A DNA stretch of 64,000 bases from Shigella phage sb4, in the sequence record PQ666542, one strand, 5' to 3'. This document shows positions 36,897 through 37,293 of the stretch, piece by piece (position 1 is the stretch's first letter; every line of letters begins with the position of its first letter). Under the pieces are notes generated by a model that saw nothing but the letters and a program-made list of their open reading frames with translations, was not told where the DNA came from and searched no databases. Made by a program: the position numbers and the translations under genes.

Positions 36897-37293
36897 TATA
36901 AATTCTCTTTTAAATGAAAATGCAGGACTTATTGGCATTGCCTGCGAAAGCCCTAAAGGGGGTACTTAGGTTTTGAATATTTACCGACAGGATAACCATA
37001 AACCTCGTCAACATAACTTATAGCTCTTATCTGTTGCACACCGTTAGCTTAAAGGTTCCGGGTTCGATTTCTCGAGGATAAGATATATACTGATGGATAT
37101 ATAGGCCTTGAGGCGTACTCCCGATTAGCCATCACCTCGGGGTAGCATGCACTTGCCGCTATAAAATAACATTCAAGAGGTACACCGTAAAACTGCCGGG
37201 GTCTTAAAACTATAATGATTCGCAAATCATTAATCAGACAGTTCGACGGCTCCTCGTTTTAACTTCACACTAAGGCAGTGACTCTCCAATAAA
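36897..37293. other. About 400-bp non-coding region with no ORF and visibly higher GC than its surroundings; candidate structured RNA or regulatory region of unknown type
   Basis: No ORF of 60 aa or more on either strand; several short hairpins (ATGATT-CGCA-AATCAT, GCATGC palindrome, ATATAT arms). Lies between rIII and a small basic-protein gene. Confidence 0.3.

Follow-up and report, generated by a model that had tools for sequence, protein, structure and literature searches.

Four-way junctions combined with contacts of the loop-loop or pseudoknot type are found in riboswitches such as SAM-I, yybP-ykoY, cobalamin and lysine, the intergenic regions of phages often contain small ribozymes, and RNAs with a fold complexity and base conservation comparable to those described below have often proved to be riboswitches, ribozymes or specific protein-binding RNAs. 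T4-type phages are also known to carry PeSLs, small composites of an early promoter and a terminator stem-loop, which behave as mobile regulatory cassettes (PMC2839356, PMC4122927). Here, we analyse a stretch of 64,000 nucleotides (nt) from Shigella phage sb4 (record PQ666542), referred to below as the window, and describe a predicted structured RNA located in the spacer between genes rIII and 30.9 of this Tequatrovirus (T4-like) phage, which shares some properties with each of these groups and lacks others. A preliminary description of the DNA had offered three possibilities for the spacer: that it specifies a structured RNA, that it is what remains of an intron or mobile element, or that it serves regulation. 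The first of these is strongly supported, but only on the minus strand (the rIII sense) and for no more than the ~150 nt in the middle of the gap.

We estimate, at a probability of roughly 0.9, that 37017-37165 on the minus strand encodes an uncatalogued structured RNA of ~149 nt, which combines a four-way junction, a kissing helix and a three-way arm and is carried as an optional cassette. Position n of its 137-nt core (37022-37158) corresponds to window coordinate 37159 - n. The predicted elements are as follows.

37017-37165, minus strand: the whole structured RNA domain, consisting of P0 and the 137-nt core (covariance model, pair counts)
37159-37165, minus strand: 5' strand of P0 (UUUAUAG), pairing with 37017-37023 (CUAUAAG)
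37104-37157, minus strand: P1-P2 arm (positions 2-55)
37155-37157 with 37104-37106, minus strand: helix P1 (positions 2-4 with 53-55)
Between P1 and P2: conserved internal loop, AAGNGCAU (positions 5-12) facing CUNAHG (47-52)
37138-37146 with 37113-37123, minus strand: helix P2 (positions 13-21 with 36-46, bulges at 40 and 44)
Positions 23-34: loop L2
37084-37103, minus strand: P3 hairpin (positions 56-62 with 69-75)
37091-37096, minus strand: L3, the 6-nt loop of P3 (positions 63-68)
37129-37134 with 37091-37096, minus strand: kissing helix, L2 positions 25-30 (UGAUGG) with the entire L3 (63-68, CCAUCA)
37025-37083, minus strand: P4 domain, with the three-way junction of P4, P5 and P6
Positions 76-82 with 128-134: helix P4
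Positions 84-95: P5 hairpin, with a GAAA, GUAA or UAAA loop
Positions 96-100 with 116-121: helix P6

The fold was derived from a MAFFT alignment of 17 distinct homologues, in which the consensus helices were predicted by RNAalifold and the loop-loop helix was added by eye; P1-P6 were recovered by RNAalifold independently. Altogether, the model contains seven helices and the 6-base-pair (bp) kissing helix, and P0, P1, P3 and P4 meet in a perfect four-way junction with no unpaired junction bases. Standard pairs are formed in 99.0% of the 696 pair cells, compared to 30-44% after a shift of the 3' partners by 1-3 columns, and both-sided (compensatory) changes were detected at 18 of the 41 pairs; none of 500 shuffles reached the observed values. 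The domain shows a conserved fold backed by covariation, the feature expected of aptamer-type RNAs. The alignment includes 28 G-U cells and no A-C cells, indicating that the RNA is read in the rIII sense, and the fraction of paired cells is 99.6% in that sense versus 96.0% on the opposite strand. The transcribed strand is also marked by the U62-G69 wobble in P3, which is found in 15 of the 17 sequences.

The support is spread over the individual helices. All six pairs of the kissing helix are formed in 17/17 sequences and three of the six covary (U-A to C-G; G-C to U-A or A-U; G-C to A-U). Compensatory changes affect 5/9 pairs of P2, 3/7 pairs of P3, in which 99% of the cells are paired, 3/7 pairs of P4 and 3/4 pairs of P5, whereas P1 is unchanging in the 17-sequence alignment and displays a C-G to U-A replacement in the Yersinia phage fHe-Yen9-01. 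In P6, A-U is replaced by U-A in Cronus and G-C by A-U in fHe-Yen9-01. The flanks that form P0 are complementary despite their sequence differences (27 distinct flank pairs; for instance, UUUAUAAG/CUUAUAAA in Moon, CAUAUUA/UAGUAUG in EcS1 and UAUAAU/AUUGUA in Cronus), with a mean run of 4.8 consecutive pairs versus 1.6 when the two flanks are taken from different phages, and the helix is lengthened by the invariant C1 (37158)-G135 (37024) pair. Among the unpaired segments, L6 (GAMCCUUUAAGCUAA) hardly varies and J6/4 (GCAACA) not at all. An all-against-all covariation scan for further tertiary pairs was swamped by phylogenetic correlation among the approximately six lineages, and we claim no added pair.

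A blastn search of 50,697 phage records with the whole gap as the query yielded matches in 1,014 T4-like genomes, distributed mosaically. T4-type genomes, such as that of RB14, match both ends of the gap without the centre. In Klebsiella (Jiaodavirus) and Enterobacter/Edwardsiella (Kanagawavirus) phages, the central ~135 nt are 93-96% identical and the remainder of the gap is unalignable. When the centre alone was used as the query, 407 GenBank phage records (408 places) were retrieved, all from T4-like phages with essentially a single copy each, and roughly 40% of the related sequenced phages carry the RNA. According to the taxonomy-checked records, the carriers belong to Tequatrovirus, Dhakavirus (JS98, VR5), Moonvirus, Kanagawavirus, Jiaodavirus, Karamvirus, Muldoonvirus, Roskildevirus, Kagamiyamavirus and Tegunavirus. 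In every record examined, the RNA is located between rIII and 30.9 and is co-oriented with both genes. The covariance model detected one copy only in the 64-kb window, at 37022-37158 on the minus strand (170 bits, E = 7e-40), and copies in 20 of the 50 rIII loci from IMG/VR. A metagenome scan with a 16-base pattern returned mostly chance matches, with only near-identical copies confirmed by the model, and a looser viral scan added no new lineages. Taken together, these data strongly support a new, optional family of complex structured RNAs in T4-like phages, as judged by comparative sequence analysis.

The conservation of the RNA exceeds that of the adjacent gene. With the window copy as the reference, core identities of 91-99% go together with rIII identities of only 66-84% for the nucleotide sequence and 63-89% for the protein, with 63-76% in one set of protein comparisons. 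Lower core identities were obtained for Muldoon, Cronus and EcL8g (81-85%) and for EcS1 and fHe-Yen9-01 (68-70%), the copy of the latter being only 68% identical to that in the window. The divergence of the RNA is uncoupled from that of rIII: in CIP9, rIII is among the most divergent and the RNA is 95% identical. This mismatch points to strong constraint, horizontal exchange, or both.

Comparison with T4 delineates the RNA as a discrete cassette. The genome of T4 (NC_000866) aligns across the spacer at ~97% identity with a single clean gap of 152 nt, and RB14 shows the same gap.

37015-37166 (no strand assigned): 152-bp block, the unit of gain or loss, present here and missing from T4 and RB14 (pairwise alignment)

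Within Tegunavirus, the RNA is missing from phiR1-RT and present in fHe-Yen9-01, the flanks of the two phages being 94% identical. Thus, the RNA is gained or lost as a discrete block of ~140-150 nt. At the same site, GAATGT^ATGATGACG, other Tequatrovirus/Dhakavirus genomes (five loci) contain an unrelated insert of ~52 nt, CTATCACGCGTCAGAAAAAGGTTATCTGTCTAAGTCGTGGTTGG, and a related motif, GCGTCAGCAAAAGGTTAGCTGTCTAAG, is found inside another stem in a further locus; the ~52-nt insert and its relatives look like a family of alternative small RNA cassettes. The location of the RNA within the spacer also varies. It begins 11-12 nt past the rIII stop codon in Moon, Cronus and one Kanagawavirus-type contig, and 83-118 nt past it, downstream of another conserved element (module A, see below), in Klebsiella phages, CIP9, PEi20 and Muldoon. 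The order with respect to other small spacer modules is variable, and the fold is self-contained across several contexts. The notion of a mobile-element remnant was therefore right as regards an optional cassette of varying position but wrong as regards decay, the RNA being the best-conserved sequence of the locus.

The carriers' annotations over the RNA are blank, list short 'hypothetical proteins' or, in one case, a 'terminator'. The 31-38-amino-acid (aa) 'hypothetical proteins' annotated across the RNA in Klebsiella phages, as in PQ537377.1 (locus L004, 2521-2753), are likely annotation errors, and so appears to be the 'rho-independent terminator' placed on helix P2 in OL960580.1 (locus L202, 800-838). 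The 'terminator' annotated in SA21RB maps to P2 (window ~37099-37137), which is followed by CCUCAAGG with no U tract, and is not called by our terminator scan.

Neither coding potential nor a known RNA family accounts for the block. According to the preliminary description, its proposals would be refuted if the homologous region of relatives encoded a protein, the spacer then being a degraded open reading frame (ORF). No such protein is encoded: all six frames contain stops in at least 23 of the 24 distinct cores, and the core lengths (132, 134, 135, 136 and 144 nt) differ by numbers that are not multiples of three. Two small ORFs were rejected as candidates: a 58-aa ORF with a TTG start (37049-37225) is not conserved, and neither is a 34-aa ORF (36910-37014), in which frame-shifting indels relative to T4 alter the peptide and early stops occur in other genera. 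ARAGORN found no genes for tRNA or transfer-messenger RNA (tmRNA) on either strand of the whole window, and the tRNA and tmRNA models of Rfam gave no matches even at E <= 10. The T-arm-like string pointed out in the preliminary description, GGTTCCGGGTTCGATT, is indeed present at 37054-37069 on the plus strand and does not fit into a cloverleaf; its likeness is coincidental, given that it is the antisense of RNA positions 90-105, that is, of the 3' strand of P5 and the 5' strand of P6, and it becomes a GGTCCGATT-type sequence in relatives via compensatory substitutions in these helices. A conserved T-loop (GTTCRANYC) is missing from the transcribed strand, the look-alike being on the plus strand. 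No Rfam 15 family matched the gap in a search of the window at the gathering threshold, and at E <= 10 the 4,227 models gave no matches in the gap, searched over 1.2 kb, or in 37005-37175 (171 nt); three divergent homologues produced no matches inside the RNA at E <= 1. An intron is likewise unsupported, with no Rfam intron matches, no interrupted gene and intact neighbours. In the module A/B region of fHe-Yen9-01 (locus L178, 2008-2115), we observed a sub-threshold match to the S15 leader (20.5 bits versus the gathering threshold of 39.5, E = 0.33), which is probably due to chance.

An apparent likeness to RNase P RNA, between GCUAACGGUGUGCAACAGA and rnpB, with the corresponding possibility of an interleaved T-loop binder of the tRNA elbow, was rejected as chance. 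Escherichia coli rnpB shares the 10-nt GUGCAACAGA with the invariant J6/4-P4 segment, where ~0.05 such matches are expected for the sequence pair. In rnpB, GUGCAACAGA corresponds to a P11 strand and J11/12, whereas here GAUAAGA is a strand of a covarying helix; in the rnpB alignment, GGUAAC represents the L9 tetraloop and GUGC/ACAGAGA represents P11 and J11/12. The RNase P model RF00010 scores rnpB at 318 bits, neither it nor RF00011 matches the RNA described here, and our own covariance model finds nothing on rnpB.

Over the 1 kb surrounding the RNA, the phage shares 99.2% identity with Shigella phages sb2 and KNP5 and 98.9% with pSs-1. All local genes are on the minus strand.

38627-39208, minus strand: cd
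38082-38390, minus strand: 31.1
37690-38028, minus strand: gene 31
37294-37542, minus strand: rIII, encoding the lysis-inhibition accessory protein, the upstream gene of the transcription unit (PHROG 1457 and the annotation of 99%-identical records)
36720-36896, minus strand: 30.9, encoding a 58-aa basic protein that begins with MAKQAKAKK, the downstream gene (ATG at 36896, stop at 36720)
36278-36610, minus strand: 30.8

The two neighbours had been correctly recognized as rIII and a gene for a small basic protein, the latter being T4 gene 30.9. In RB14 (NC_012638; locus L002, 1324-1542), 30.9 is annotated as a 72-aa protein starting from an upstream ATG; the start conserved across genera is that of MAKQ (58 aa), so that the longer version looks like an annotation error. 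At the nucleotide level, gene 30.9 and its counterparts in two Kanagawavirus-type loci are 90% identical, whereas the adjacent rIII is only 66% identical, a contrast which suggests a mosaic history with inter-genus recombination inside the spacer.

The gap itself (36897-37293, 397 nt) is free of ORFs of at least 60 aa, as previously noted, and ranks as the third-largest among such stretches in the window. Its size is not peculiar to this phage, however, given that T4 also has a long rIII/30.9 gap (245 nt), which is ~97% identical to the flanks of the block, the 152-nt block being the addition of the phage studied here. Other long stretches without ORFs of at least 60 aa (346-422 nt) are located at 17464-17885, 13356-13770 and 14704-15049; none of the three yielded Rfam matches at the gathering threshold. 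The reported rise in GC content holds but is mild (0.411 in the gap versus 0.360 in the window, within the top 8% of 397-nt windows), and the excess is confined to the 137-nt core at 37022-37158 (0.482, top 1.3% of 137-nt windows).

Consensus scans of the minus strand predicted no sigma-70-type promoter and no intrinsic terminator within 36897-37293, and the AU-rich bases immediately 5' of the RNA show no consistent likeness across genera to TATAAATA or to a sigma-70 -10/-35 pair. Signals of both kinds were identified outside the gap.

37682-37689, minus strand: T4 late-promoter consensus TATAAATA, upstream of rIII (from the sequence; the same site is annotated in SA21RB)
36695-36716, minus strand: strong intrinsic terminator after 30.9, with a 9-bp GC-rich stem, GAGGACUCC-UUCG-GGAGUCCUU, and a U run (scan; annotation in a near-identical phage)

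Because no promoter or terminator was predicted between rIII and 30.9, the domain is probably transcribed as an intercistronic part of the rIII-30.9 mRNA. The late promoter is a likely source of late transcripts running through the RNA; transcripts would start there, and probably also at earlier upstream promoters, and would end at the terminator after 30.9. This terminator is directly followed by an early-promoter-like site, and the two form a PeSL-type composite between 30.9 and 30.8 (36638-36716, minus strand).

The remaining 250 nt of the gap, which are common to T4, also contain features of their own. The following elements were delineated there.

36964-37014, minus strand: module A, a separate conserved H-type pseudoknot, also present in T4 (covariation); stem S1 pairs 37007-37009 with 36986-36988 and stem S2 pairs 36994-36997 with 36969-36972
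37265-37281, minus strand: hairpin M1 (UCACUGCCUUAGUGUGA), right after the rIII stop codon (read from the spacers by eye)
37203-37232, minus strand: AU-rich 8-bp hairpin UAAUGAUU-UGCG-AAUCAUUA, followed by UAGUUUUAAG with a U run, identical in T4

Across 14 phages, 87.6% of the module A cells are paired versus 36-50% when slid, and compensatory changes are found at 7 of the 10 pairs. Module A is located upstream of the 152-nt-block RNA in the Klebsiella, CIP9 and Muldoon types and downstream of it here. As read by eye, the M1 stem covaries (CAC/GUG, CGC/GCG, UGC/GCA, AGC/GCU) around a conserved loop, UACCWWAGU / UGCCUUAGU (five loci), and is followed by a conserved GGAG (CGAGGAGCC, ~37250-37257), which could be a RegB-type site. 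The AU-rich hairpin may serve as a weak terminator or processing hairpin after rIII; it is not called by the terminator scan. Outside Tequatrovirus, the 30.9 leader (four loci and others) is conserved in three parts, namely CCCUUGAGGGCUUGCGGGAGC, a variable hairpin and GCUCCCAUGUAUUUCUCCAAAAUGGAAGA. The likely ribosome-binding site of 30.9, GGAAGA, faces UUUCUCC, and may accordingly be sequestered. An alternative reading is a middle promoter, given that GGGCTTGCG is one mismatch from the MotA-box core (TGCTT). A near-perfect palindromic hairpin, CCAUGYGUACRC...GYGUACRCAUGG followed by GUAACGUAUGAUG, was observed in one locus (L173, 1753-1790) and, downstream of the RNA, in Cronus; it recurs in the rIII/30.9 spacers of Klebsiella and Erwinia phages and appears to be another shuffled module. 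Overall, phages combine the spacer modules in differing orders.

As to the function of the RNA, we tentatively favour, at somewhat less than even odds, an autonomous RNA that binds a conserved partner and confers an accessory benefit, over a riboswitch, a ribozyme or a passive stabilizer. This reading is drawn from the self-contained fold in several contexts, the invariant junction and loop bases across phages of many enterobacterial hosts and the lack of a conserved expression platform. The partner would be a small ligand or else a protein (or RNA) of either the host or the phage, and the RNA might act after excision at its AU-rich single-stranded flanks. The benefit would be accessory and condition-dependent, for example, in host take-over or counter-defence, and would go beyond terminating or stabilizing a message. 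It is possible, although we hold this with less conviction, that the RNA is the founder of a new functional class, a gene-less exchanged cassette acting as a new ribozyme or as a binder of a host factor or signalling molecule. If so, the new class would explain the optionality of the RNA, its conservation above that of the neighbouring genes and its function in any sequence context, and the binder version would be an RNA counterpart of the phage protein 'sponges' and decoys that act against defences or in host take-over.

Several observations weigh against these interpretations. With respect to the fold, the single-sequence folding energy of the core is no better than that of shuffled sequences (z = -0.05), and the stability of such folds, which for both the core and the entire spacer does not exceed that of shuffles, is uninformative; the compensatory changes stem from about six divergent lineages, most copies being nearly identical; and the P5 tetraloop departs from strict GNRA in some copies of the Klebsiella and Serratia types, where it is UAAA or UAAU. 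Recent horizontal spread, and not selection, could account for some of the extreme conservation. With respect to the function, T4 grows without the RNA, so that any role is dispensable under laboratory conditions, and the invariable location upstream of 30.9 would also fit a cis-regulatory role. Furthermore, blastn searches of 5,426 E. coli genomes gave no matches to the RNA, and the invariant 20-mer had no exact matches in 185,579 GTDB species genomes. With no host sequence resembling the RNA, a decoy acting by mimicry lacks direct support; host origin or mimicry was rejected on these negatives, at the sensitivities used.

Among the alternatives, a cis-acting riboswitch or protein-responsive leader would sense a small molecule, an ion or a protein through its aptamer and control 30.9 via Rho or RNase access or via refolding of downstream hairpins containing the Shine-Dalgarno sequence. 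The multi-helix junction, variable closing helix, pseudoknot-type contact and invariant junction bases have the usual look of an aptamer, the RNA is always 5' of 30.9 in the sense orientation, and in many genera the 30.9 ribosome-binding site lies within the conserved hairpin UUUCUCC...GGAAGA. We nevertheless consider such a switch unlikely, given that no conserved expression platform was found overlapping the closing helix, the distance to the 30.9 start varies from 71 to 160 nt (loci with the start located), P0 is directly followed on its 3' side by module A in some lineages and by module B in others, no terminator-like site follows the RNA, and none of the Rfam 15 riboswitch classes matches; moreover, T4 and many relatives express an almost identical 30.9 without the RNA. 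A further alternative is a new class of self-cleaving or other catalytic RNA, by which the rIII-30.9 transcript would be severed and each of the two messages left to its own fate. Such an RNA is consistent with the compact fold, the four-way junction and tertiary contact, the invariant unpaired bases in J1/2, J2/1, L6 and J6/4 and the patchy, cassette-like distribution typical of such elements. Still, the 171-nt region gave no Rfam ribozyme matches even at E <= 10, the topology is, by inspection, seemingly unlike the hammerhead, hepatitis delta virus-like, twister and hairpin cores, and ~149 nt exceeds most self-cleaving classes, all of which makes catalysis improbable.

The prospects of a purely passive structure, such as a 3' untranslated region (UTR) block to 3'-to-5' exonucleases, a pause site, a weak terminator or a barrier insulating the translation of rIII from that of 30.9, appear poor. 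The RNA does lie within the rIII 3' UTR, 11-12 nt past the stop codon in Moon and Cronus, the spacer is rich in other small hairpins that possibly have such roles, and one record annotates a 'terminator' on P2. For these purposes, however, a stable stem would suffice, so that seven helices, a covarying kissing helix and invariant loops (91-99% across genera) would be superfluous; P2 is not followed by a U run, the terminator scan is negative there, and the fold is thermodynamically unremarkable. That the conserved unit is DNA (a recombination hotspot, a protein-binding site or an origin-like element), with the RNA structure being incidental, is very improbable. The block behaves as an indel or cassette, in a hyperplastic region whose shuffling is known to be mediated by short conserved motifs (PMC4122927), and its nucleotide identity between genera is very high, both of which would fit such a role. 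However, compensatory substitutions maintain pairing in seven helices, a double-stranded DNA function does not predict the strand-specific excess of G-U over A-C (28 versus 0), and the block contains no repeats and no promoter hexamers. Finally, a decayed tRNA, intron or ORF remnant, to which the superficial T-arm-like string and an ORF-free block amid tightly packed genes might point, is hardly credible: no tRNA, tmRNA or intron model matches, the T-arm string is antisense and unconserved, no frame is open in the relatives, and the RNA is the most conserved sequence of the locus rather than a decaying one.

The RNA is unannotated or mis-annotated in ~400 deposited genomes of T4-like phages, the most intensively studied of phages, and was probably overlooked because T4 lacks it. 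The covariance model from this analysis can be used at once for correcting genome annotations, and the natural T4 allele provides a ready-made precise deletion of the 152-nt block. More generally, the presence of the conserved pseudoknot in T4 and of several alternative small modules raises the prospect that the rIII-30.9 spacer may be a hub of post-transcriptional control. This idea is of interest in view of a report that RIII binds ribosomal protein S1 and modulates the RegB RNase (PMC9409239).

How, then, does the RNA compare with described systems? Among the papers searchable by us, none contains the sequence or links rIII, non-coding RNA and T4-like phages. Like a PeSL, the RNA is short, non-coding and located where T4-like genomes vary, and its presence and position differ between close relatives; unlike PeSLs, it has no promoter hexamers or terminator, is ~150 nt long and adopts a complex covarying fold. 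With regard to boundaries, it is the RNA itself that constitutes the indel, an alternative insert is found at the same site, and the only shared flanking motif found was GAATGT / ATGATGACG. The T4 RNAs rnaC and rnaD (species 1 and 2) are likewise phage non-coding RNAs of ~120-140 nt but reside in a different locus, the tRNA cluster; homology to them was rejected, the covariance model scoring at most 7.7 bits there with filters off. Like the riboswitch aptamers named at the outset, the RNA has a variable closing helix, several helices that meet in a junction with invariant nucleotides, and a loop that makes a long-range contact; unlike them, it has no conserved expression platform, varies in its spacing to the downstream gene and is optional between near-identical phages, and no covariance model of these aptamers matches it. 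In its main text, the 2023 catalogue of structured RNAs from phages contains none of the terms looked for on the locus or the phage group, and an anonymous entry in its supplements is possible (PMC10690425). A close parallel is with orphan intergenic RNA motifs (PMC2864571, PMC5737381, PMC10690425), which are also defined by conservation and covariation and are also intergenic; as with such motifs, the multi-stem junction and pseudoknot-type contact of the RNA suggest a ligand- or protein-binding fold.

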